A program made the position numbers and the translations under genes. The notes under the pieces were generated by a model that was not told where the DNA came from, searched no databases, and saw only the letters and a list, made by a program, of their open reading frames with translations. From the IMG/VR virus record IMGVR_UViG_3300045988_069160, positions 1 to 36,715 of that record: DNA of 36,715 bases. One strand, given 5' to 3'. Shown here in pieces: positions 1,138 through 22,744 of the stretch. Source of the DNA: a virus. Each line of letters begins with the position of its first letter. Positions within the stretch are counted from its first letter, which is position 1.

Positions 1138-2253
1138 TCACTCAGCGCCTTTGTCGAGGACGTTGATAGCGTTGTGGGCACTCTGCATGTCGGGATGGAT
1201 ATACCGCTGCGTCGTGGAGAACTTCGTGTGACGCATGATCTCTTGAATCAGGCTCGGCGCGGTCTTGGCCAGAGCAAGCGCTGTTGCCGTGGTATGCCGG
1301 CATGAATAAGGCGGCAGGTCACGAACCTTTGCCCGAGCGAGTGCGGCGTGGTACTCGGTATAGAAATTATCTGCGTTCATGCCGACGATATAGCCTTTTT
1401 GGCTTTTGACGTTGGAGAGAATATCCAGCACGAGCGGGCCGAGCCAGTCAGGATAAATCAGCGGCGTTTCTTTTCGCTTTTTGGTTTTTAGACCGCAGCC
1501 GATAATCTCGTGCGTATCGGTGTGGATCATGTCGGAGGTGCAGCGCAGCAGCTCTCCGGGCATCATGCCGCTATAAATCATCAGGAGCGGGAAAGCAACA
1601 AATTTGTCACCGCCGTCGTAAGCTTTCCACAGGGATTTTATCTCATCTTCGGTGAACGGCTTCTGTTCGGTCTCCTCCAGCGGCGGCAGCTCGATAAACT
1701 CGGCGAGATTCGTCCGCGCCTGCCCCTCAGCGACGGCACGTTTATATAGCTGCGAGAAAAGCGTTTTCATGTCCCGGGCAGGGTAAAACGTTTCGACCTG
1801 AGAATCGACGCAGCTTTGCAGATTGTTGATTGTCAAATCGAGCATGGGGACATTCTTCAGCGCCTCCATGCGTTTCCACGCGATATCATACGCACACTGC
1901 TTTGACTTCGACAGTGCGTTATAGGCGCTGGTAGACCACCCCTTGTAATAGTCGTTGAGCGTGGGGCGGTAAGCATCTTTTGCCTGAACCTCGACCGGAT
2001 TCGCGGCAAAGGCCAGCGCCGCTGTCTTGGACGGGAAGCCGCCTTTTGTGCTGCGCCGCTGGTGCAGATTCCCGGAGGCGTCCACGAACGTCTCACACGT
2101 CCACATGGCCGTCCACGTGCGCCCGCGTTTATATGCGGTCCCTTGGCCGTTGCCGCGCCCTCTGCGCGTTTGAGCGATCTCCTGCTTTGCACCGCAATAT
2201 AGGCAGTACGCGCTGATGTCAGGAATCTCCTTTTTACATTTCCGGCATTTCAT
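1138..2253 (-). CDS. int: Tyrosine recombinase / phage integrase with N-terminal zinc ribbon
   Basis: 371 aa. N-terminus reads CRKC...CLYCG. The C-terminal catalytic region contains YSCRHTTATALA and IMRHTKFSTTQRYIH (the R, HxxR and Y signature of tyrosine recombinases). Adjacent to the tRNA-fragment attP. Confidence 0.95.
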   Translation of the reverse strand: MKCRKCKKEIPDISAYCLYCGAKQEIAQTRRGRGNGQGTAYKRGRTWTAMWTCETFVDASGNLHQRRSTKGGFPSKTAALAFAANPVEVQAKDAYRPTLNDYYKGWSTSAYNALSKSKQCAYDIAWKRMEALKNVPMLDLTINNLQSCVDSQVETFYPARDMKTLFSQLYKRAVAEGQARTNLAEFIELPPLEETEQKPFTEDEIKSLWKAYDGGDKFVAFPLLMIYSGMMPGELLRCTSDMIHTDTHEIIGCGLKTKKRKETPLIYPDWLGPLVLDILSNVKSQKGYIVGMNADNFYTEYHAALARAKVRDLPPYSCRHTTATALALAKTAPSLIQEIMRHTKFSTTQRYIHPDMQSAHNAINVLDKGAE

Positions 2254-4457: not shown

Positions 4458-4500
4458 GCCCCGATGCGGTTTAATCCGCGTCGGGGCTTTTGTCGTTTTT
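4458..4500. terminator. Hairpin terminator between convergent genes
   Basis: GCCCCGATGCGG (4458-4469) pairs with CCGCGTCGGGGC (4476-4487), 12 bp including one G-U pair, followed by TTTTGTCGTTTTT. It overlaps the 3' end of the repressor gene. Confidence 0.6.
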
Positions 4501-4875
4501 GAGGTTCTCCTGATAGGCCTCGTAGGTGCGGCCGATGAAAGCAATGACGGTTTTCAGATCGTCGTTCGGCGTGGCCTTCAGTGCGTCAATGAAAGCGTTG
4601 ACTTCTGGGCTTGACTCACCGGCTGTGACGCTGGCCAGAAACACGGCGCGTTCCTGATCGGGAGTGAGCTGCATATACATTGAGCCCTCGCCGGTACGCA
4701 GCCACTCTTCACGGACGCGGAACTCGCGGCAAATCGAGCGGATGGTCTGATCACTCGGGTTAGACTTTCCGGATTCTATCGTACTACAGGACGAGGCAGT
4801 TATACCGATGCGCTCTCCGAATTTTTCAAGAGTCAGCCCCTCAGCCTTACGAAGCGCCCTTATACGGGTGTTCAT
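4471..4875 (-). CDS. CI-like repressor, XRE-family HTH
   Basis: The track ORF runs 4471-4884 from a GTG that abuts the AAGGGGG RBS. ATG at 4875 has better spacing (134 aa). HTH motif: LTLEKFGERIGITASSCSTIESGKSNPSDQTIRSICREF. The gene is divergent from the early operon. Confidence 0.9.
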   Translation of the reverse strand: MNTRIRALRKAEGLTLEKFGERIGITASSCSTIESGKSNPSDQTIRSICREFRVREEWLRTGEGSMYMQLTPDQERAVFLASVTAGESSPEVNAFIDALKATPNDDLKTVIAFIGRTYEAYQENLKNDKSPDAD

Positions 4876-4899
4876 CGGAATCACCCCCTTTCAACATGG

Positions 4900-7558: not shown

Positions 7559-7863
7559 GCAGCAAGAAGAAGGATGCGTCCCAGCAGTACATAAGCCTGT
7601 GCCCCGATCACTACCGGAGATTCGACACCAAGCATTACCAACTGACCCACGAAGCAGACAACAGCAGCTGCGCATTTTGCGGACGCGCGGCAGCACAGTA
7701 CAGTTTCATACCCCGGTACGTAATAAAGCGTCAGCGGCAGCGCAGCGCTCCAGCGCGCAGCCGCGACACGCGGGCACAGTACCGGGGAGACTGGAGGGAG
7801 TCAATATATGGAAACAACAATGACAGCAGCGAGCGCCCGGAAGAAGATGCCCTGCCCTACTGA
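7555..7863 (+). CDS. Hypothetical protein with zinc-ribbon-like CPDH...CAFCG
   Basis: ATGA overlap with the previous gene. 102 aa. The C-terminal third overlaps the VRR-NUC gene and is compositionally odd. Confidence 0.5.
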   Translation: MSSKKKDASQQYISLCPDHYRRFDTKHYQLTHEADNSSCAFCGRAAAQYSFIPRYVIKRQRQRSAPARSRDTRAQYRGDWRESIYGNNNDSSERPEEDALPY

Positions 7864-8813: not shown

Positions 8814-9692
8814 ATGGACAAAGAACAAACTGCAATGGAGCGGCTGCGGCTGGCGTCGGATATGTCGCTGCGCCTGTATCACCGTCCGCTGCTGCTGACT
8901 GACAGCGGCGGCAAGGACAGCGCCGTGATCTGCAAGCTCGCGGAGAACGCAGGGATTCCCTTTGAGATCGTCCACTCTCACACGACCGCGGACGCGCCCG
9001 AGACTGTCTATCATGTCCGCAAGCGCGCCAAAGAATACGAACTCAAAGGCGTAAGCTATACGATCCATTACCCCACATATAAGGGCAAGCCGACAAGTAT
9101 GTGGGAGCTCATACCCATTAAGCTCATGCCGCCGACACGGTTAGCCCGTTACTGCTGCGCTGTGCTCAAGGAGACAACAGGCCGCGGCAGGTTCATAGCG
9201 ACCGGTGTGCGCTGGGCGGAGAGCACAGCACGGAAGAACAATCGCAGCAGCCTTGAAATAATCCACGCAGACAGGAAGAAGACCCTGCTGCTGAACAATG
9301 ATAACGATGAAGATAGGCGGCTCTTCGAGACATGCACGCTCAAGGGCGAGCGTGTCTGCAATCCTATCATCGACTGGCAGGAATCCGATGTGTGGGACTA
9401 CCTCACAGAACAGCACGTCGAATGCAATCCACTATACTGCAAGGGCTGGCCCCGCGTGGGCTGTATCGGCTGCCCGCTGGCGGGCAAAGCACGGTATAGA
9501 GAGTTTGCCCAATATCCAAAGTACAGGCCGATGTACATCAATGCGTTTGACCGCATGCTCGCGGAGCGCCAGCGCCGCGGAAAGATGAACGGCTCATGGA
9601 GAATGGGCACTACCGGCGTTGATGTATTCCACTGGTGGATGGAGGACGGCGTTCTGCCGGGGCAGTTCGAGATTGAGGAGGATGAACCGTGA
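8814..9692 (+). CDS. PAPS reductase-family (PP-loop ATP pyrophosphatase, DndC/IbrA-like) protein
   Basis: 292 aa. PP-loop LLTDSGGKDSAV and a C-terminal Cys cluster CNPLYCKGWPRVGCIGCP. Confidence 0.9.
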   Translation: MDKEQTAMERLRLASDMSLRLYHRPLLLTDSGGKDSAVICKLAENAGIPFEIVHSHTTADAPETVYHVRKRAKEYELKGVSYTIHYPTYKGKPTSMWELIPIKLMPPTRLARYCCAVLKETTGRGRFIATGVRWAESTARKNNRSSLEIIHADRKKTLLLNNDNDEDRRLFETCTLKGERVCNPIIDWQESDVWDYLTEQHVECNPLYCKGWPRVGCIGCPLAGKARYREFAQYPKYRPMYINAFDRMLAERQRRGKMNGSWRMGTTGVDVFHWWMEDGVLPGQFEIEEDEP

Positions 9693-14174: not shown

Positions 14175-15401
14175 ATGCAAAAGATGAACATCGTTTACAA
14201 GCGGCTCGATGAGCTGCGGCCATACGAAAACAACGCGAAGACCCACCCGGAATCACAGCTTGCCAACATTGCCCACAGCATCGCGACGTATGGCTGGAAA
14301 CAGCCGGTGGTAATAGACCCCTACGGAGTCATCATCGTCGGACACGGGCGCGTACAGGCGGCACAGCGGTCAAACGTGCTGCGAGACCAGCTTGTGCCGT
14401 GCATTATAGCCGATGATCTGACCGAAGAAGAGATAGCGCAGTTCAGGATCGTCGACAACAAGTCAGCGGAGTCCCCGTGGGATATGGACGCACTCGCAGC
14501 CGAGCTTGAAAAGGTCGACCTGTCGGGATTTGATTTTGATTTCGGGTTCGAGGACAAACTGAGCGCCGAGGTAGTCGAGGACAATTACGTGCCGGAGCTG
14601 CCTGAAAAGCCGAAAGCACGAGCGGGCGATGTGTACCAGCTGGGGGGGCACAGACTGATGTGCGGCGACAGCACGAAACGCGAGGATGTGGAGAAGCTGT
14701 GCGCCGGGGTCCAGATGGATTTACTCTTGACCGACCCGCCGTATAACGTGGACTACGAGGGCACGGCCGGGAAGATCAAGAACGACCACATGGCATCGGA
14801 TAAGTTCCGCGAGTTCCTCACGGCGGCGTTCCGGAATGCGGCTGCTGTGATGAAGCCCGGAGCGGGATTTTACATTTGGCACGCGGACTCGGAGGGCTAT
14901 AACTTCCGCGGGGCCTGCATGGACAGCAAGTTCCAGATTCGACAGTGCCTGATCTGGGTAAAAAACACACACGTAATGGGGCGACAGGACTTCCAGTGGA
15001 AGCACGAGCCTTGCCTGTACGGCGAGCGGGAGATCGAGGAAGATGAAATACCACTCGGCGATGAAACACAGCCGTGTTTGTACGGCTGGAAAGATGGCGC
15101 GCGGCACTATTTCTTCAAAAACCGCAAGCAATCCACCGTGCTTGAGTTTCCGAAGCCGATAAAGAGCAAGGAGCACCCGACGATGAAGCCAGTGCGCCTG
15201 TTCGACTACCAGATGCAGTGCTCGACGCACACCGGGGACAGCGTCCTCGACCTGTTCGCCGGGAGCGGGACGACGATCATAGCGGCGGAGCAGAACGGGC
15301 GGCGTGCATACTGCATGGAGTTCGACCCGCACTATGTCGACGTGATAATCGACCGCTGGGAGAAATTCACCGGCGAGCGGGCGGTGCTGCTGAATGAATG
15401 A
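14175..15401 (+). CDS. ParB-like nuclease domain fused to an N6A/N4C DNA methyltransferase
   Basis: 408 aa. N-terminal ParB-like motifs RPYENNAKTHP...IIVGHGR, followed by the beta-class methyltransferase motifs LLLTDPPYNVDY and DLFAGSGTT. Confidence 0.95.
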   Translation: MQKMNIVYKRLDELRPYENNAKTHPESQLANIAHSIATYGWKQPVVIDPYGVIIVGHGRVQAAQRSNVLRDQLVPCIIADDLTEEEIAQFRIVDNKSAESPWDMDALAAELEKVDLSGFDFDFGFEDKLSAEVVEDNYVPELPEKPKARAGDVYQLGGHRLMCGDSTKREDVEKLCAGVQMDLLLTDPPYNVDYEGTAGKIKNDHMASDKFREFLTAAFRNAAAVMKPGAGFYIWHADSEGYNFRGACMDSKFQIRQCLIWVKNTHVMGRQDFQWKHEPCLYGEREIEEDEIPLGDETQPCLYGWKDGARHYFFKNRKQSTVLEFPKPIKSKEHPTMKPVRLFDYQMQCSTHTGDSVLDLFAGSGTTIIAAEQNGRRAYCMEFDPHYVDVIIDRWEKFTGERAVLLNE

Positions 15402-16066: not shown

Positions 16067-17367
16067 GGAGCGCCGGATTCAAGTTTCAACCGTTTTCCCA
16101 CAAACAGAAGCAGGTTCTGACATGGTGGATGCCGTCGAGCGGAGTTTCCGACTATGAGGGCATCATTGCTGACGGCGCGATCAGGAGCGGGAAGACGGTG
16201 TCAATGGCACTGTCCTACGTTATGTGGGCAATGAGCACGTTTCGGGAAGAGAATTTCGGCATGTGCGGAAAGACGATCGGCAGTTTCCGGAGAAACGTAC
16301 TCGGACCGCTGCAGCGGATGCTGCGGACGCGGGGATATAAATATGCGTATCACCGTGCGGACAATTACATCGAGATACGCCGCGGCGCGGTGATAAATTA
16401 TTTCTACATCTTCGGCGGCAAGGATGAGAGCAGCCAGGACTTGGTGCAGGGCATAACGCTCGCGGGTGTGCTGTTCGACGAAGTAGCGCTGATGCCTGAA
16501 AGCTTTGTCAATCAGGCGACGGCGCGATGCTCGGTCGAGGGCTCGAAGTTCTGGTTCAACTGCAACCCAGACAGCCCGGAGCACTGGTTCAAGAAAGAAT
16601 GGATAGATAAGCTCGGCGAGGAGAGCGGGAAGCATTTGATCTATCTCCATTTCACGATGGACGATAACCTCTCCCTAAGCGAGGAAACGAAAGCCCGATA
16701 CCGGGGAATGTACAGCGGCGTGTTCTACAAACGCTTCATCCTCGGCGAGTGGTGTGTGGCCGAGGGGCTTGTCTACACCGAGTTCACGGATGCGAACATC
16801 AAGACCGAGCACGCGGCGAATCCCCAGCGCTGGTTCATCTCGATAGACTATGGCACATTCAACGCCTTTTCGGCGGGACTATGGTCATGGGACGGAAAGA
16901 AAGCGCAGCGGGAGCGGGAGTTTTACTATTCCGGCCGCGAGGAGCGGGAGCAGCTGACAGACGACGAATACTACACCAAGCTTGAAGAGCTGGCGGGCGA
17001 TTTGACGATCAGCTGCGTAGTAATAGACCCGTCGGCGGCGTCATTTATAACGCTGATCCGGAAGAAGAAAAGGTTCCAAACGAAGAAAGCGAAAAACGAT
17101 GTGCTTGACGGCATCCGCTTCACGGCTGCGTGCCTGAAGGCGGGGCTGATAACCGTTCACGAGAGCTGCGAGAGCTGCCTGCGGGAGTTCAAGCTGTACC
17201 GTTGGAACGAAAAAGCCACGACCGACACGGTCATCAAAGAGAATGACCACGCGATGGACGACACCCGGTATTTCGCATACACGATTCTGCGCCCATTGCT
17301 GCGCAGTGCGTATAAAGACGGCAAAGACAAAACCATTTCGACGATATTTGGAGGGCAATATCTATGA
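16048..17367 (+). CDS. terL: Terminase large subunit
   Basis: 439 aa. Walker A GAIRSGKT, Walker B-like GVLFDEV, and a C-terminal nuclease region with acidic residues (VIDPSAA, DHAMDDTRY). Confidence 0.95.
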   Translation: MARRSVRSAGFKFQPFSHKQKQVLTWWMPSSGVSDYEGIIADGAIRSGKTVSMALSYVMWAMSTFREENFGMCGKTIGSFRRNVLGPLQRMLRTRGYKYAYHRADNYIEIRRGAVINYFYIFGGKDESSQDLVQGITLAGVLFDEVALMPESFVNQATARCSVEGSKFWFNCNPDSPEHWFKKEWIDKLGEESGKHLIYLHFTMDDNLSLSEETKARYRGMYSGVFYKRFILGEWCVAEGLVYTEFTDANIKTEHAANPQRWFISIDYGTFNAFSAGLWSWDGKKAQREREFYYSGREEREQLTDDEYYTKLEELAGDLTISCVVIDPSAASFITLIRKKKRFQTKKAKNDVLDGIRFTAACLKAGLITVHESCESCLREFKLYRWNEKATTDTVIKENDHAMDDTRYFAYTILRPLLRSAYKDGKDKTISTIFGGQYL

Positions 17368-18809
17368 GTTTCCTGACCTATCAGGACTTCGAGACTGTGA
17401 AGCCGGAAGAGCTCGCAGACTTCGTAAAGCGTGCAATCGCGGAACATAAGGCCAGCGTAGAGTACGAAATCGCCTTGACGGCGGATCAATACGACAAAAA
17501 GCGGAACACGACGATCTGCAACTACGTCCAGACCATGATGGATGTGACCGGCGTTCGTATCGTGGATATCACGGCGGCAAACAATAAAATCTGCTCCAAC
17601 TTTTTCCACAGGCTGAACACGCAGCGGAATATGTACTCTCTGGGCAACGGCCTAACGTTCGAGAAAGAGGAGACAAAAAAGAAACTCGGCAGGAATGCCG
17701 ATGTGAAGATCAAGCAGGCTGCGTATAAGGCGCTGATCCACGGCCGGAGCTTCATCTTCTGGAACGGCAGCCAGATGTATGTGTTCCCGGTCACCGAGTT
17801 CAAGCCGCTGCCGGACGAGGACACCGGCGCAGTGAGAGCGGGAATCCGATTCTGGCAGCTCGCTGCAGATAAGCCGCTGATCGCCGTGCTCTACACGGAG
17901 CGCGGCTACAAGAAGTTCATATACCGGAAGGACAGGCAGCCCGAAGCAATACCGCCTGAGCGGGATAGATACATGGCCTACAAGATCACGATACGCAAGG
18001 TCGAGGCCACGGGAGAGGTCGAGGTGGCCGGGGAAGAGAACTGGAACGGCATCCTGCCGATAATCCCGCTTTACGGCTCGGAACTCAAGCAGAGCACCCT
18101 TGTCGGTATGCGCGAGCAGATAGATTCCTTTGACCTCATCCGTTCCGGATTCGCGAACAATCTTCAGGACTGCGCGGAAATATACTGGATCGTCAAGAGA
18201 GCGGGAGGCATGGACGATGCGTCACTTGCTGAGTTCCGCACCCGCTTGAAGACGCAGCACATTGCGTCGGTAAATTCCGAATATGACGACGGCGAGAATG
18301 ATGCTGCCGAGCCGTACACCCAGCAGATACCGTATGAAGCCCGGAAAGAATACCTGCAGGAGATCAGAGCGGGAATCTATGAGGACTTCGGAGGGCTGGA
18401 TGTGCATACCATCGCTGCCGGCGCCACGAATGACCACATTGACGCCGCTTATCAGCCTTTGGACGAAGAGGCGGACGATTTCGAGTTCCAAATCATTGAA
18501 TGCGTCGTGGCGCTGCTTGCACTGCAGGGCGTGTCGGAAGAGGACGCGACGCCGAGTTTCAAACGAAACCGAATCAGCAACCAGAAAGAGCAGACGGATA
18601 TGGTCATGGAGACCAGGGAACTGATCGGTGATGAGCTGGCATTAAAGAAGCTGCCTTTCCTGACCCCGGACGAGGTCGCGACGCGACTCGAAACTATGCT
18701 CGCCGAAGAAATGGACCGTTTTGATAACGGTTTCGACGACGGTAATAACAAAAATCCGGAGGACGATAACATAAACCCCTATGATGATAACGCTGGGGAT
18801 GAGGCATAA
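17364..18809 (+). CDS. Portal protein (SPP1 gp6-like)
   Basis: ATGA overlap with terL. 481 aa. Position, size and acidic C-terminus fit a portal protein. Confidence 0.9.
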   Translation: MSFLTYQDFETVKPEELADFVKRAIAEHKASVEYEIALTADQYDKKRNTTICNYVQTMMDVTGVRIVDITAANNKICSNFFHRLNTQRNMYSLGNGLTFEKEETKKKLGRNADVKIKQAAYKALIHGRSFIFWNGSQMYVFPVTEFKPLPDEDTGAVRAGIRFWQLAADKPLIAVLYTERGYKKFIYRKDRQPEAIPPERDRYMAYKITIRKVEATGEVEVAGEENWNGILPIIPLYGSELKQSTLVGMREQIDSFDLIRSGFANNLQDCAEIYWIVKRAGGMDDASLAEFRTRLKTQHIASVNSEYDDGENDAAEPYTQQIPYEARKEYLQEIRAGIYEDFGGLDVHTIAAGATNDHIDAAYQPLDEEADDFEFQIIECVVALLALQGVSEEDATPSFKRNRISNQKEQTDMVMETRELIGDELALKKLPFLTPDEVATRLETMLAEEMDRFDNGFDDGNNKNPEDDNINPYDDNAGDEA

Positions 18810-18812
18810 ACC

Positions 18813-20276
18813 ATGAAGCTGGATGAAGGCCACAGGCTGACCGATGAGCATCTGCAGGAGCTTGAAGAGCGCATCCGGGAAATGTACGAGGAAGCCGCTA
18901 AAGAGCTGCAGGGCATCATCGATGATTATTTTGCTAAGTTCGCGGTAAGAGACAAGGAAATGCAGGATATGCTGCAGGCCGGGAAAATCGACGAAGAAGC
19001 ATATAAGCAGTGGCGTTTAAATCAGATCGGCCGCGGCCGACGATTTGAGCAGTTGCGGGACAAGCTCGCGGAGCGGGCGACACATGCGAATGAAGTGGCG
19101 GTGGCCTACATCAATGACACCACGCCGGGGATATACACCCTCAACCGCAACTATGCGGCTTACGAGATTGAGAGCGTCGGAGCGGGCGTAGACTTCACTC
19201 TGTACGATGAGGCGACTATTCGCCGCTTGCTTGTCGAACGCCCTGACCTCATGCCATATTACCCGCCGAGCCTTGCACTGAAACGCGGCATTGATCTCAA
19301 CTACGGCAAAAAGCAGATAACCGCACGAGTAACACGGGGAATACTGATGGGCGAGAGCAACCGACAGATTGCTGCCGGGCTGAGGGAGCGGCTGACAAAC
19401 ATGAGCGTCACGAGCGCCATCCGCGCCGCACGAACCGCGGTCACGGCTGCCGAGAACGGCGGGCGAACGGCGAGTTATCAACAGGCCGAGGACATGGGCA
19501 TTGAGCTCACGCGTGAGTGGCTGTCCACAAGAGACGGCAGAACACGCCCCGAACACGGCAAAGCCGATGGACAGAGCGTCGGAGTCAAAGAACCCTTTAC
19601 AGTTGGCGGCGAAAAGCTCATGTTCCCCGGAGACGCTTCTCTTGGAGCGTCCGGCTGGAATCTGTATTGCTGCCGCTGCGCCGTGAAAGCCAAAATCAAA
19701 GGCCATGAACGCAAGAGAGAGGTGTATTCGGAATGGCTTGAGCGGAAAATGGAAGAAGACCCGCAAGGAACTACACTGGAGTTCAAAAAGCAGGTTCGGC
19801 GTAACGCTGATTATGCACAGTATCAGGAGTATGCAAAATACGCGCGTAAAGAGACACCAAATACATTTGCAAAATTTCAAGATTTGAAGTATAGTAACCC
19901 AAACGAATGGGAAAAGCTAAAAGCCACCAAACATCAGAGGGAGACAATAAAAAACGCGCCGTGCGAAACCACGCCGAAAAAATTCAGCGGCTATTTTCTC
20001 AAGGACGGAACAAAGCACGCGAGAGATTTTTTCGATGCTGGGTATTCTGCGAATGATGTTCTGCGGCTACGCTATGATATAGCCCGGCAATTCGACGAAA
20101 GCAAGGCTGAGAAGTTTACCATTGATGAAGATGGGCGCGAAAGGTTCAGGATTTACATGAAATTGGGAACAAAAGGACAGGTATTCCGCACTGCGTGGAT
20201 CCGCGATACGCCGGAAAGCAAGCCGAGAATAACCACGGCGTTCAGGGAGGCGGCAAAAGATGATAAAGCTTTTTGA
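18813..20276 (+). CDS. Minor head protein (Mu F / SPP1 gp7-like) with an additional ~190-aa C-terminal extension
   Basis: 487 aa. MuF-type core TRPEHGKADGQSV...FPGD...LYCCRC ends near aa 297. The C-terminal part (from about nt 19710) is visibly AT-richer; its last ~100 aa resemble, from memory, the DUF6883 pattern. Confidence 0.9.
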   Translation: MKLDEGHRLTDEHLQELEERIREMYEEAAKELQGIIDDYFAKFAVRDKEMQDMLQAGKIDEEAYKQWRLNQIGRGRRFEQLRDKLAERATHANEVAVAYINDTTPGIYTLNRNYAAYEIESVGAGVDFTLYDEATIRRLLVERPDLMPYYPPSLALKRGIDLNYGKKQITARVTRGILMGESNRQIAAGLRERLTNMSVTSAIRAARTAVTAAENGGRTASYQQAEDMGIELTREWLSTRDGRTRPEHGKADGQSVGVKEPFTVGGEKLMFPGDASLGASGWNLYCCRCAVKAKIKGHERKREVYSEWLERKMEEDPQGTTLEFKKQVRRNADYAQYQEYAKYARKETPNTFAKFQDLKYSNPNEWEKLKATKHQRETIKNAPCETTPKKFSGYFLKDGTKHARDFFDAGYSANDVLRLRYDIARQFDESKAEKFTIDEDGRERFRIYMKLGTKGQVFRTAWIRDTPESKPRITTAFREAAKDDKAF

Positions 20277-20451
20277 CCATGTCAAAATAAAGGAAACAGG
20301 AATTAGCGGCATCGTGGTCGATATTGGCGAGGTAAAAGGCGAGGCTCGATACGAAGTGGAAGCCGACGAAAAGGGCACACCGGGAGGCTACGGCGATGAA
20401 GGCGACTGGAAGCTATACGGTTGCCGCGCTGCTGAAATCGAGAAGGTGTGA
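20260..20451 (+). CDS. Small protein overlapping the MuF 3' end (DUF4926-like by memory; candidate cognate/immunity partner)
   Basis: 63 aa. The start overlaps the MuF gene by 17 nt. Product: MIKLFDHVKIKETGISGIVVDIGEVKGEARYEVEADEKG... Confidence 0.7.
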   Translation: MIKLFDHVKIKETGISGIVVDIGEVKGEARYEVEADEKGTPGGYGDEGDWKLYGCRAAEIEKV

Positions 20452-20454
20452 ACA

Positions 20455-20883
20455 TTGGCTATAGAAGTCAAAATCATAAACAACAAAGACCTTGTGAGAA
20501 ATGCCCTCCGCGAGCAAATCATTACTGCCCTTGAAGCAGTGGGCATACAGGCTGAGGGCGACGTCAAGGATGAAGTCGAGAACCTGCATGCGGTTGACAC
20601 GGGACGGCTCAGGAGCAGCATCACACACAAGGTCGTCCCCGATGAGAAGGCCGTATACGTGGGGACGGACGTCAACTATGCCGTCTACGTCCACGAGGGG
20701 ACCGGCGCGGAGAACGTGGCCGGGGGCACACCGAAGAAGCGCTGGGCATACAAAGACCCGCTGACCGGGGAGTGGCGCATTGGCACACCGCAAAAGCCCC
20801 GCCGCTTCATCAAAAAGGCTGTTGAAAAGAACGCCAAGGATTACGGGAAAATCATTGAAGAATACCTCTCCCGCGGCGATTAA
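20455..20883 (+). CDS. HK97 gp10-family head-tail joining protein
   Basis: TTG start with a GAAGGTG RBS, 142 aa. DTGRLRSSI...NYAVYVHEGTG is typical of the gp10 family. Confidence 0.8.
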   Translation: MAIEVKIINNKDLVRNALREQIITALEAVGIQAEGDVKDEVENLHAVDTGRLRSSITHKVVPDEKAVYVGTDVNYAVYVHEGTGAENVAGGTPKKRWAYKDPLTGEWRIGTPQKPRRFIKKAVEKNAKDYGKIIEEYLSRGD

Positions 20884-21607: not shown

Positions 21608-22744
21608 ATGGCAGAAGCGAATCTGATTAAGAGAGAAGATCTCTCGCGAGTGAGAGAAATGGAGTTTGTCGACCAGTTCGGCTACTCCGTCAAGAAGCTG
21701 CTGGAGGTTCTGGGCGTCACCAGAAAAATCAAGAAGCAGCCCGGAACCGTCCTCAAGAGCTATAAGGCGAAGGGAAAGCTTGAGAGCGGGATCGTCGGCG
21801 AAGGTGAAACCATACCGCTGAGCAAGTATGAGGTCGAAGAGATCAACTACAAGGAAATCACGCTGAAGAAGTGGCGTAAGGCCACCACCCTTGAAGCAAT
21901 TGTAGACCGCGGCTACGATCAGGCCGTCGAGGCTACCACGGCTGAAATGCTGCGTGATGTACAGAGGGGAATCCGAAAGGACTTCTTCACGTTCATGCTG
22001 AGCGGAGAGACCTCGGCCACAGGTAAGAACTTCCAGACTGCGCTCGCGCGCATGTGGGGACAGCTTCAGATCCTCTTTGAGGACGACAATATCCAGGCAG
22101 TGTACTTCATGAACCCGATGGATGTTGCAGACTACCTCGCCGATCACAACATCACTGTGGAGAGCGTGTTCGGTATGAGGTATGTGGAGAACTTCCTCGG
22201 CATCGGCACCACGTTTTTCAATTCCTCCGTGCCGCAGGGGAAGATTGCCGCGACCGCGTCCGGGAACATCGTCTGCTACTACGTCGACGCCGCAACGGCG
22301 GATGTCGCCGAGGCGTTCAACTTCACCACCGATGAGACCGGCCTGATCGGCATTCACGAGACTTCGGACTACGATAACCTTACCTCGAAGGACACGGTTG
22401 TCTCGGGTGTGGAGCTGTTCGCAGAGCGTATCGACGGCATTGTCGTCGGCACGATCGGCAGCACTCTCGGCGCCCTGACCGTCACGAGCGCCGCCGGTAA
22501 GGCTTCCGGCACCACGAAGCTGACGGTAACCCCGGCCAAGAGCAGCGCGGGCAACATCTACAAGTACAAGGTCGGCGAAGCAGCTGAAACCGTGACCATG
22601 GGCGAAGACGTGTCCGGCTGGGACAGCTGGGACGGCGCGGCGGACATCACGGCCGCGACGGGGAAGACCCTGACCCTTGTCGAGGCGGACAGCCTCAATA
22701 AGGCGGTAGCGTCCGGCTCGGCCACGGTAACGGCCAAGGGCTGA
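21608..22744 (+). CDS. Major capsid protein (HK97 fold) with C-terminal Ig-like domain
   Basis: 378 aa, positioned after the scaffold gene. The C-terminal ~90 aa (LTVTSAAGKASGTTKLTVTPAKS...ASGSATVTAKG) have a beta-strand-rich, Ig-like character. Confidence 0.9.
   Translation: MAEANLIKREDLSRVREMEFVDQFGYSVKKLLEVLGVTRKIKKQPGTVLKSYKAKGKLESGIVGEGETIPLSKYEVEEINYKEITLKKWRKATTLEAIVDRGYDQAVEATTAEMLRDVQRGIRKDFFTFMLSGETSATGKNFQTALARMWGQLQILFEDDNIQAVYFMNPMDVADYLADHNITVESVFGMRYVENFLGIGTTFFNSSVPQGKIAATASGNIVCYYVDAATADVAEAFNFTTDETGLIGIHETSDYDNLTSKDTVVSGVELFAERIDGIVVGTIGSTLGALTVTSAAGKASGTTKLTVTPAKSSAGNIYKYKVGEAAETVTMGEDVSGWDSWDGAADITAATGKTLTLVEADSLNKAVASGSATVTAKG

Follow-up and report, generated by a model that had tools for sequence, protein, structure and literature searches.

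In a phage genome from IMG/VR (record IMGVR_UViG_3300045988_069160, positions 1 to 36,715; this whole stretch of 36,715 nt is called the window throughout), the gene of a 487-aa minor head protein of the MuF/gp7 type is followed by a 63-aa open reading frame (ORF) that overlaps its end by 17 nt. Sequence comparisons make it probable that the head protein is a polymorphic toxin with a C-terminal DUF6883-family toxin domain and that the small ORF encodes the corresponding immunity protein. The domain was accompanied by the small ORF in 172 of 172 cases, and both are precisely replaced as one cassette in a sister phage. Pairing together with such a precise swap is what defines polymorphic toxins and their immunity genes, as described for MuF proteins (PMC5576092).

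The cargo itself is uncharacterised, appears to be restricted to phages and has an SH3-like protein as its obligate partner. Phages of the human gut commonly encode MuF toxins, and a second MuF cargo, widespread and apparently confined to phages, is thereby defined together with its partner, its exact swap boundary and its candidate catalytic residues (H402, K390, Y411 and R472). A first-pass annotation of this DNA, made from the letters alone, had described the two overlapping ORFs and proposed a swapped-in module with the architecture of a MuF toxin and a downstream immunity gene. The ORFs and the exchange are borne out by the data below. The toxin-immunity architecture gains support from the pairing and the cassette swap, still at the level of sequence. 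The locus comprises the following features:

17364 to 18809, plus strand: SPP1 gp6-like portal, directly upstream of the MuF gene (Pfam SPP1_portal, E=1.9e-25)
18813 to 20276, plus strand: MuF/gp7-type minor head protein with toxin-like C-terminal domain, 487 aa (ORF; Pfam Phage_Mu_F and DUF6883; PHROG head-morphogenesis families)
19311 to 19685, plus strand: MuF core domain, aa 167-291 (Pfam PF04233, 52.5 bits)
19704 to 19943, plus strand: linker low in guanine plus cytosine (GC), aa ~298-377, holding the junction motif FAKFQDLKY (GC 43.3%)
19894 to 20455, plus strand: exchangeable cassette, consisting of the last 127 aa of MuF and the small ORF (blastn against loci L189 and L190)
19944 to 20276, plus strand: C-terminal DUF6883-family domain, aa 378-487, putative toxin (Pfam match at aa 388-477, 19974-20243)
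20244 to 20250, plus strand: Shine-Dalgarno sequence AGGGAGG of the small ORF, within the coding region of MuF (sequence read)
20260 to 20451, plus strand: SH3-like small ORF of 63 aa, putative cognate immunity protein (homologues; AlphaFold2; Foldseek; dN/dS)
20455 to 20883, plus strand: HK97 gp10-like head-tail protein, whose start is the right cassette boundary (Pfam HK97-gp10_like; homology with L189 resumes at 20456)

The MuF cassette and its two products

MuF polymorphic toxins are characterised by an N-terminal MuF domain (PF04233 or PF06152) whose gene adjoins that of the portal, by a variable C-terminus of at least 100 aa and by a small downstream ORF (Jamet et al. 2017, PMC5576092). 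The window locus displays these features within the head module of a temperate phage. PF04233 is matched well above its cut-off of 29.6 bits, and PHROGs matches of the 487-aa protein are to head-morphogenesis and minor-head families. The MuF core is followed by an extension of ~190 aa, which is polymorphic while the N-terminus is conserved. The downstream ORF is shorter than 150 aa, and in Dulem virus 33 and L193, whose MuF genes are short, no such ORF follows (L numbers denote the loci compared). Further features shared with the known class are a temperate phage of Firmicutes, the human gut, and a C-terminus differing among close homologues.

In a broader comparison with MuF relatives of 52-58% identity, the proteins of Dulem virus 33, L192 and L193 end after the core, have neither the extension nor the small ORF and are followed by a gp10-like gene. 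These short homologues are 325-333 aa long and align to the 487-aa protein only up to aa ~299-312, which confirms the ~190 extra residues counted in the first-pass annotation. The LYCCRC sequence, placed there at the end of the core near aa 297, is located at aa 284-289. The low GC content reported for 19861-19920 was also found (30% instead of ~32%, within the lowest 0.5% of 60-nt windows); the backbone value of ~60% set against it was too high, the average of the window being 54.5%. The C-terminal extension (19704-20276) has a GC content of 46.1%, among the lowest 1.4% of segments of the same size, compared with 57.1% for the MuF core and 48% for the toxin domain. The minimum lies in the linker (aa ~320-396) and not in the toxin domain.

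The linker motif FAKFQDLKY (aa 352-360, 19866-19892) is positioned 18 aa upstream of the C-terminal domain in 73 unique long carriers. Its general form FxxFQDLKY was present in 79 of 122 close carriers versus 4 of 46 diverse carriers. It is therefore no general junction motif but specific to a subfamily.

Comparison of the window with the sister phage L189 by blastn revealed 93% nucleotide identity on both sides of the cassette, ending at 19893 and resuming at 20456, and no homology in between. The intervening 562 nt are replaced in L189 by an unrelated C-terminal domain and an unrelated Cys-rich ORF of 67 aa, next to a MuF core that is 93% identical to that of the window. L190 carries a divergent allele of the cassette: identity is 87-89% in the flanks versus 68% within the cassette, and at the protein level the core is 91% and the C-terminal domain 58% identical. 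When the window is compared with L190, the synonymous divergence (dS) amounts to 2.5-3.7 for the cassette versus 0.4-0.5 for the flanks; the cassette alleles are old and were moved by recombination. Ratios of nonsynonymous to synonymous divergence (dN/dS) were 0.07-0.14 throughout, with 0.07 for the small ORF, and indicate that both cassette genes are under purifying selection. Judged by these alignments, the domain is exchanged jointly with the small ORF, the boundaries being at 19894-20455.

Another C-terminal domain together with another small ORF was found in phage Chenonceau and in L195. The polymorphic C-terminus beside a conserved core, for which the first-pass annotation had suggested an alignment of homologues, is thus seen in L189, L190, Chenonceau, L195 and the short MuF proteins. 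Two of the alternative cassettes occupy the same MuF position:

L019 (Flavonifractor phage Chenonceau), 2495 to 4002: alternative cassette
L189, 3582 to 4199: alternative cassette

In both, the C-terminal domain matches DUF4258 weakly (E=0.015), and an unrelated small ORF of 67-69 aa, different in the two cassettes, accompanies it. Alignment of the DUF6883-family domain profile with the DUF4258-like domain of L189 by hhalign gave a probability of 3.6%, and no relation of the two cargos is claimed.

To define the pairing, 179 loci were scanned, comprising contigs of the same phage and its relatives plus two viral-contig scans. They contained 172 domain-bearing ORFs, 169 of which were accompanied by a small-ORF homologue detected with a hidden Markov model (HMM) at a gap of -41 to +8 nt. 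A diverged 56-aa homologue was located downstream of the remaining three, so that every domain-bearing ORF has a partner. The collection amounts to 82 unique pairs and 12 clusters below 60% toxin identity. In unrelated phages the pair is found on a 160-aa DUF7211 protein encoded between TerL and an HK97-type portal. In L180 (1373-3033), separate genes encode MuF (347-365 aa), the DUF6883 domain (102 aa) and the small ORF product (73 aa), which means that the toxin is not always fused to MuF. A free-standing pair with an 11-nt overlap resides in a Schwartzia chromosome (L184) and is the only chromosomal pair of this kind found; none was detected in 72,556 plasmids. The domain and the small ORF are a near-obligate pair across unrelated carriers.

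In one phage group, several DUF7211 proteins of 121-231 aa flank TerL, one of them carrying the DUF6883 domain. Besides MuF, DUF7211 may thus represent another N-terminal carrier whose C-termini vary. Such proteins near TerL were located at the following positions:

L013, 872 to 1237 and 3001 to 3483: DUF7211 proteins
L014, 169 to 1213 and 3001 to 3468: DUF7211 proteins
L017, 567 to 1262: DUF7211 protein

DUF6883 (PF21814) is a Pfam family without assigned function. With a gathering score of 27, the window sequence is a marginal member: the whole 487-aa protein reached 27.8 bits, whereas its isolated C-terminus, at 26.3 bits, fell slightly under the cut-off. Membership rests on the whole family rather than on this score, because 99 of 125 relatives of the C-terminal domain match DUF6883 (best E-value 3.1e-15). 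The earlier assignment of the last ~100 aa to DUF6883 is thereby upheld. An exhaustive HMMER search with aa 378-487 yielded 167 clusters (50% identity) at E<=1e-3, of which 92 remained at E<=1e-10, yet tblastn found the domain in only 1 of 50,697 GenBank phage records, an unannotated faecal contig, and in none of the 72,556 plasmids. It is situated nearly always 0-8 residues from the C-terminus of proteins ranging from 54 to 870 aa. According to Pfam, the carriers among the 125 domain proteins include 23 with Phage_Mu_F, 10 with Phage_min_cap2, 11 with VG15 and 11 with DUF7211, and in some proteins no carrier domain was identified beside the DUF6883-family domain. A word-indexed protein search with aa 370-487 returned nothing, as too few 5-residue words are shared. 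A phmmer match among PDB sequences was discarded as spurious since it summed repeats of fused RecA chains.

The conserved positions of the domain are K390, H402, Y411, W462 and R472 in the numbering of the window protein, and K390, H402, Y411 and R472 are conserved in at least 90% of the relatives. An AlphaFold2 model computed from 42 sequences (pLDDT 90.3, pTM 0.81) consists of three helices followed by a four-stranded antiparallel sheet. As a putative toxin, the domain would most likely be an RNase of the BECR/RelE type, independent of metal and using H402 together with K390, Y411 and R472. We infer this identity, reasonably and no further, from the predicted topology, from the conserved His, Lys, Arg and Tyr residues and from the mention of DUF6883 and DUF4926 in a 2026 preprint on BECR ribonucleases.

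The Shine-Dalgarno sequence of the small ORF lies 9 nt upstream of its ATG. Homologues of the ORF form eight clusters with 65-98% identity. The first-pass annotation had proposed DUF4926 (PF16277) for this ORF, an identity that is not supported: the window ORF matched no Pfam family even at E<=10, and no family member reached any gathering score. Among 33 diverse members, sub-threshold Pfam matches were to the MSSS SH3 domain in 15, to DUF4926 in 5 (12.7-14.1 bits versus a cut-off of 29.1) and to NifZ in 4, so that fewer members match DUF4926 than MSSS. The weak DUF4926 and small-barrel matches of a few members are co-linear (profile positions 16-48). The small ORF resembles DUF4926, MSSS and NifZ in size and in its predicted five-stranded SH3-like barrel, and its relation to DUF4926 is at most a distant one within SH3-like barrels. 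The AlphaFold2 prediction comprises five strands with a best pLDDT of 85.5, from 8 close sequences and with five models that disagree (pLDDT 42 to 85.5). Foldseek matched this model to SH3-like barrels with TM scores of 0.6-0.7, including the nitrile hydratase beta subunit, R67 DHFR, NdhS, and CAP-Gly and Tudor domains. No DNA-binding domain was recognisable in the small protein by AlphaFold2 modelling and Foldseek. The family is best treated as an unclassified family of predicted SH3-like barrels.

Toxin-less copies beside CRISPR arrays

A search of metagenome contigs from the side of the small ORF identified 77 loci. The small ORF stood behind a DUF6883-domain ORF in 45 cases, and none of these 45 loci contained an array of clustered regularly interspaced short palindromic repeats (CRISPR). 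Another 30 small ORFs (29 loci) had no detectable upstream toxin; a CRISPR array was present within ~30-1000 nt in 17 of these 29 loci, counts that refer to the contigs searched.

Three unrelated repeat families are involved, namely those of a cas9-cas1-cas2 locus, of a cas4-cas1-cas2 locus and of a GTCGCC...GAAAT array. The cas9-cas1-cas2 locus adjoins metK and contains the small ORF either once or twice in tandem, with a tandem pair in L001 (3767-3964 and 4001-4198) versus a single copy in other strains (L002, L003 and L188 were compared). These CRISPR-adjacent copies are positioned at the cas-distal end of the array (L001 3767-4198; L188; L197-L208; L248, L250, L252 and L253; L216 and L221-L223). 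All that the three contexts share is the ORF of ~175 nt, at 74-77% nucleotide identity. The GTCGCC...GAAAT array is followed by a zinc-ribbon ORF of 52 aa, a 63-aa homologue of the L195-type small ORF and a window-type small ORF, a run that constitutes a small polyimmunity array. Such arrays after the CRISPR array were located as follows:

L216, 2600 to 3186: polyimmunity-like array
L221: polyimmunity-like array
L222, 2601 to 3186: polyimmunity-like array

An IS30-type transposase and phage lysis-like genes follow these arrays.

In L245 and L251, the small ORF and its downstream flank are 92-95% identical in nucleotide sequence to L250, and neither cas4-cas1-cas2 nor the array is present. The CRISPR locus is therefore an insertion/deletion polymorphism beside the ORF. 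Where toxin-less copies adjoin a CRISPR array, no toxin remnant was found upstream of them; among the other copies lacking a toxin, some are preceded by a frameshifted toxin or by a helix-turn-helix (HTH) gene. In L202, L209/L210, L213/L214 and L264 the small ORF is intact and the upstream toxin frame seems frameshifted or degraded, which may reflect either assembly errors or real loss of the toxin while immunity was retained.

One spacer of the cas9-linked array points to the window itself:

7740 to 7769, plus strand: protospacer, identical at 28 of 30 bases to a spacer of L002/L003 (cas9-linked array)

With shuffled sequences, no match was obtained in 100 trials. This was the only one of 315 spacers from the three array types to match the window or any phage locus searched, and it links an Oscillospiraceae bacterium with toxin-less copies, 65-70% identical, at its CRISPR locus to the window phage.

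The cas-distal position of the toxin-less copies may be due to a general defence-island effect or to a specific counter-measure of the host against an injected toxin. It is conceivable, if rather unlikely, that bacteria keep the antidote gene at the cas-distal array ends as protection against an injected phage toxin. In a stronger version of this idea, the phage would use the injected DUF6883 RNase early on to attack host defence, for example CRISPR RNA (crRNA) or the transcripts of defence genes, and the copy kept by the host next to CRISPR would serve as counter-measure. Should the link between toxin-less copies and CRISPR hold, this would suggest that hosts defend themselves against phage-injected proteins and that genes of this kind gather at CRISPR loci. 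We consider these copies the part most worth following.

Probable toxin-immunity pair and alternative explanations

In the window protein, aa 1 to ~300 form the MuF module, aa ~300-377 a linker and aa 378-487 a compact alpha/beta domain, which according to the polymorphic-toxin reading is a toxin, presumably an RNase of the BECR/RelE type. The toxin would be packaged with the capsid and injected into the next host. In the producing cell or lysogen, the translationally coupled 63-aa SH3-like protein would bind and neutralise it. The putative toxin domain and immunity gene move between phages as one cassette by recombination. For SPP1, the 2017 survey describes that the MuF module of gp7 binds the portal and that 1-2 copies are packaged per capsid (PMC5576092).

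The behaviour of the locus resembles that of CdiA-CT/CdiI and Rhs-CT cassettes, in which toxin and immunity gene are also exchanged as a unit past a conserved junction motif. A further likeness concerns the toxin-less and tandem immunity genes of bacterial chromosomes; the copies of the small ORF found in bacteria are in part arranged in tandem and in part placed within runs of other genes of the immunity type. Polymorphic-toxin systems are reportedly known to feature immunity genes that lack a toxin as well as polyimmunity loci, an observation attributed to Zhang et al. 2012. In contrast to CdiA-CT/CdiI and Rhs-CT, which are delivered by a secretion system, the vehicle here would presumably be the phage capsid, and the junction motif is limited to a subfamily. 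The cargos of MuF toxins in the 2017 survey are nucleases, peptidases and ADP-ribosyltransferases, and DUF6883 is not named among the MuF toxin domains in the parts of that paper searched (PMC5576092). The only MuF cargo tested experimentally in the literature found is a (p)ppApp synthetase of the Apk2 toxins (PMC12226406).

Several results weigh against a toxin function. In contrast to most polymorphic-toxin domains, the cargo is no recognised or shared polymorphic-toxin domain: the 125 relatives include phage carriers only, with no carrier belonging to a type V, VI or VII secretion system (T5SS, T6SS, T7SS) or to Rhs proteins, and neither of the two proteins falls into a recognised toxin family in Pfam, NCBIfam or PADLOC. 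The family search suggested by the first-pass annotation succeeded in Pfam for DUF6883; profile searches of PDB sequences with the domain returned nothing useful. Foldseek with the domain model gave no PDB match at E<=1e-3. The weak matches obtained, 7vd7_A, 3hi2_B (MqsR) and 5ja8_C (HigB2), include RelE-family toxins, with TM scores of only 0.33-0.42 and without significance. Significant Foldseek matches in BFVD were limited to three C-termini of minor capsid proteins from uncultured phages, which carry no functional information because they are distant members of the same domain. With RelE, HigB, MqsR, colicin D/E5 and barnase, representatives of the BECR/RelE RNase toxins, the modelled domain has in common the N-terminal helices, the four-stranded antiparallel sheet and the conserved His, Lys, Arg and Tyr, as well as a small, here presumably neutralising, partner encoded adjacent; the structural similarity is low, as stated, and no sequence-profile link connects them. 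The correlation between toxin and partner identities (r=0.89, Mantel p=0.001, 82 unique pairs) would also be expected from co-inheritance alone. Finally, the searchable literature contains no experimental report on the toxicity of any DUF6883 protein. The earlier remark that the cargo has no known activity agrees with that literature, with the qualification that a 2026 preprint on BECR ribonucleases (10.64898/2026.08.28.747851) mentions both DUF6883 and DUF4926.

Apart from a delivered toxin, the pair could be a type II toxin-antitoxin module that acts only in the encoding cell, in addiction, abortive infection or superinfection exclusion. The MuF fusion would then be an accident at a permissive site, with no delivery by the virion. 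Such a module would account for the free-standing chromosomal pair of Schwartzia with its overlapping genes, for the separate 102-aa toxin gene behind an intact MuF gene in L180, for the presence of the domain on the small DUF7211 protein and for the weak Foldseek matches to RelE, HigB and MqsR toxins. We regard it as unlikely, although plausible, since the domain occupies the extreme C-terminus in the proteins checked and the identifiable carriers are packaged head proteins (MuF and minor capsid protein 2). Moreover, the toxin gene comes first, the small ORF has no recognisable DNA-binding domain of the kind typical of type II antitoxins, and the swap boundary lies within the MuF reading frame with the fusion being kept.

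SPP1 gp7 binds DNA and the portal, and the window protein's C-terminal domain shows no significant similarity to known toxins. Both points would fit a non-toxic domain involved in nucleic-acid binding or assembly, with the small SH3-like protein serving as its chaperone or assembly partner. We consider this explanation very unlikely: closely related phages without the pair, or with unrelated replacements, show that assembly can do without it, the pair is also found away from head genes altogether, and toxin-less partner copies in bacterial chromosomes would not be explained by a chaperone role. The toxin-less copies beside CRISPR arrays could instead suggest that the small ORF encodes an anti-defence protein such as an anti-CRISPR, linked to the domain by position only, and genes of this type are often situated in the head-gene regions of temperate phages. 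However, the ORF is strictly coupled to one domain family in 172 of 172 cases despite varied carriers and positions, it is replaced by an unrelated ORF where the domain is swapped, and it is hardly to be expected that a host would retain a gene that blocks its own CRISPR system right next to an array that is long and looks active. An anti-defence function is the least probable of the explanations considered and appears highly improbable.

Genome setting of the MuF gene

TerL, portal and MuF genes follow each other in the order of a head module, and genes for scaffold and capsid proteins also adjoin the MuF region (Pfam). Outside this module, the following genes bear on the lifestyle of the phage:

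1138 to 2253, minus strand: tyrosine integrase (Pfam Phage_integrase, E=3.2e-11)
2302 to 2874 and 4471 to 4884: HTH repressor-like genes (HTH matches)

The presence of an integrase and HTH repressors identifies the phage as temperate. A genome scan detected the same phage (91.7% nucleotide identity) inside a metagenome-assembled genome (MAG) of an uncultured Oscillospiraceae bacterium; another uncultured Oscillospiraceae MAG contained the small ORF as a toxin-less copy. The nearest relative of the MuF core with a cultured host is a Flavonifractor phage. The window is a temperate siphophage-type genome, and its host is likely an Oscillospiraceae bacterium.

Further genes of the window were noted in passing. 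The major capsid protein (21608-22744, plus strand) contains a C-terminal S-layer SbsC-like domain at aa 296-377 (Pfam E=1.1e-15), which is probably a surface decoration. A PAPS-reductase-family protein is encoded at 8814-9692 (plus strand), and a DNA methylase with a weak, sub-threshold N-terminal ParB_N match at 14175-15401 (plus strand).

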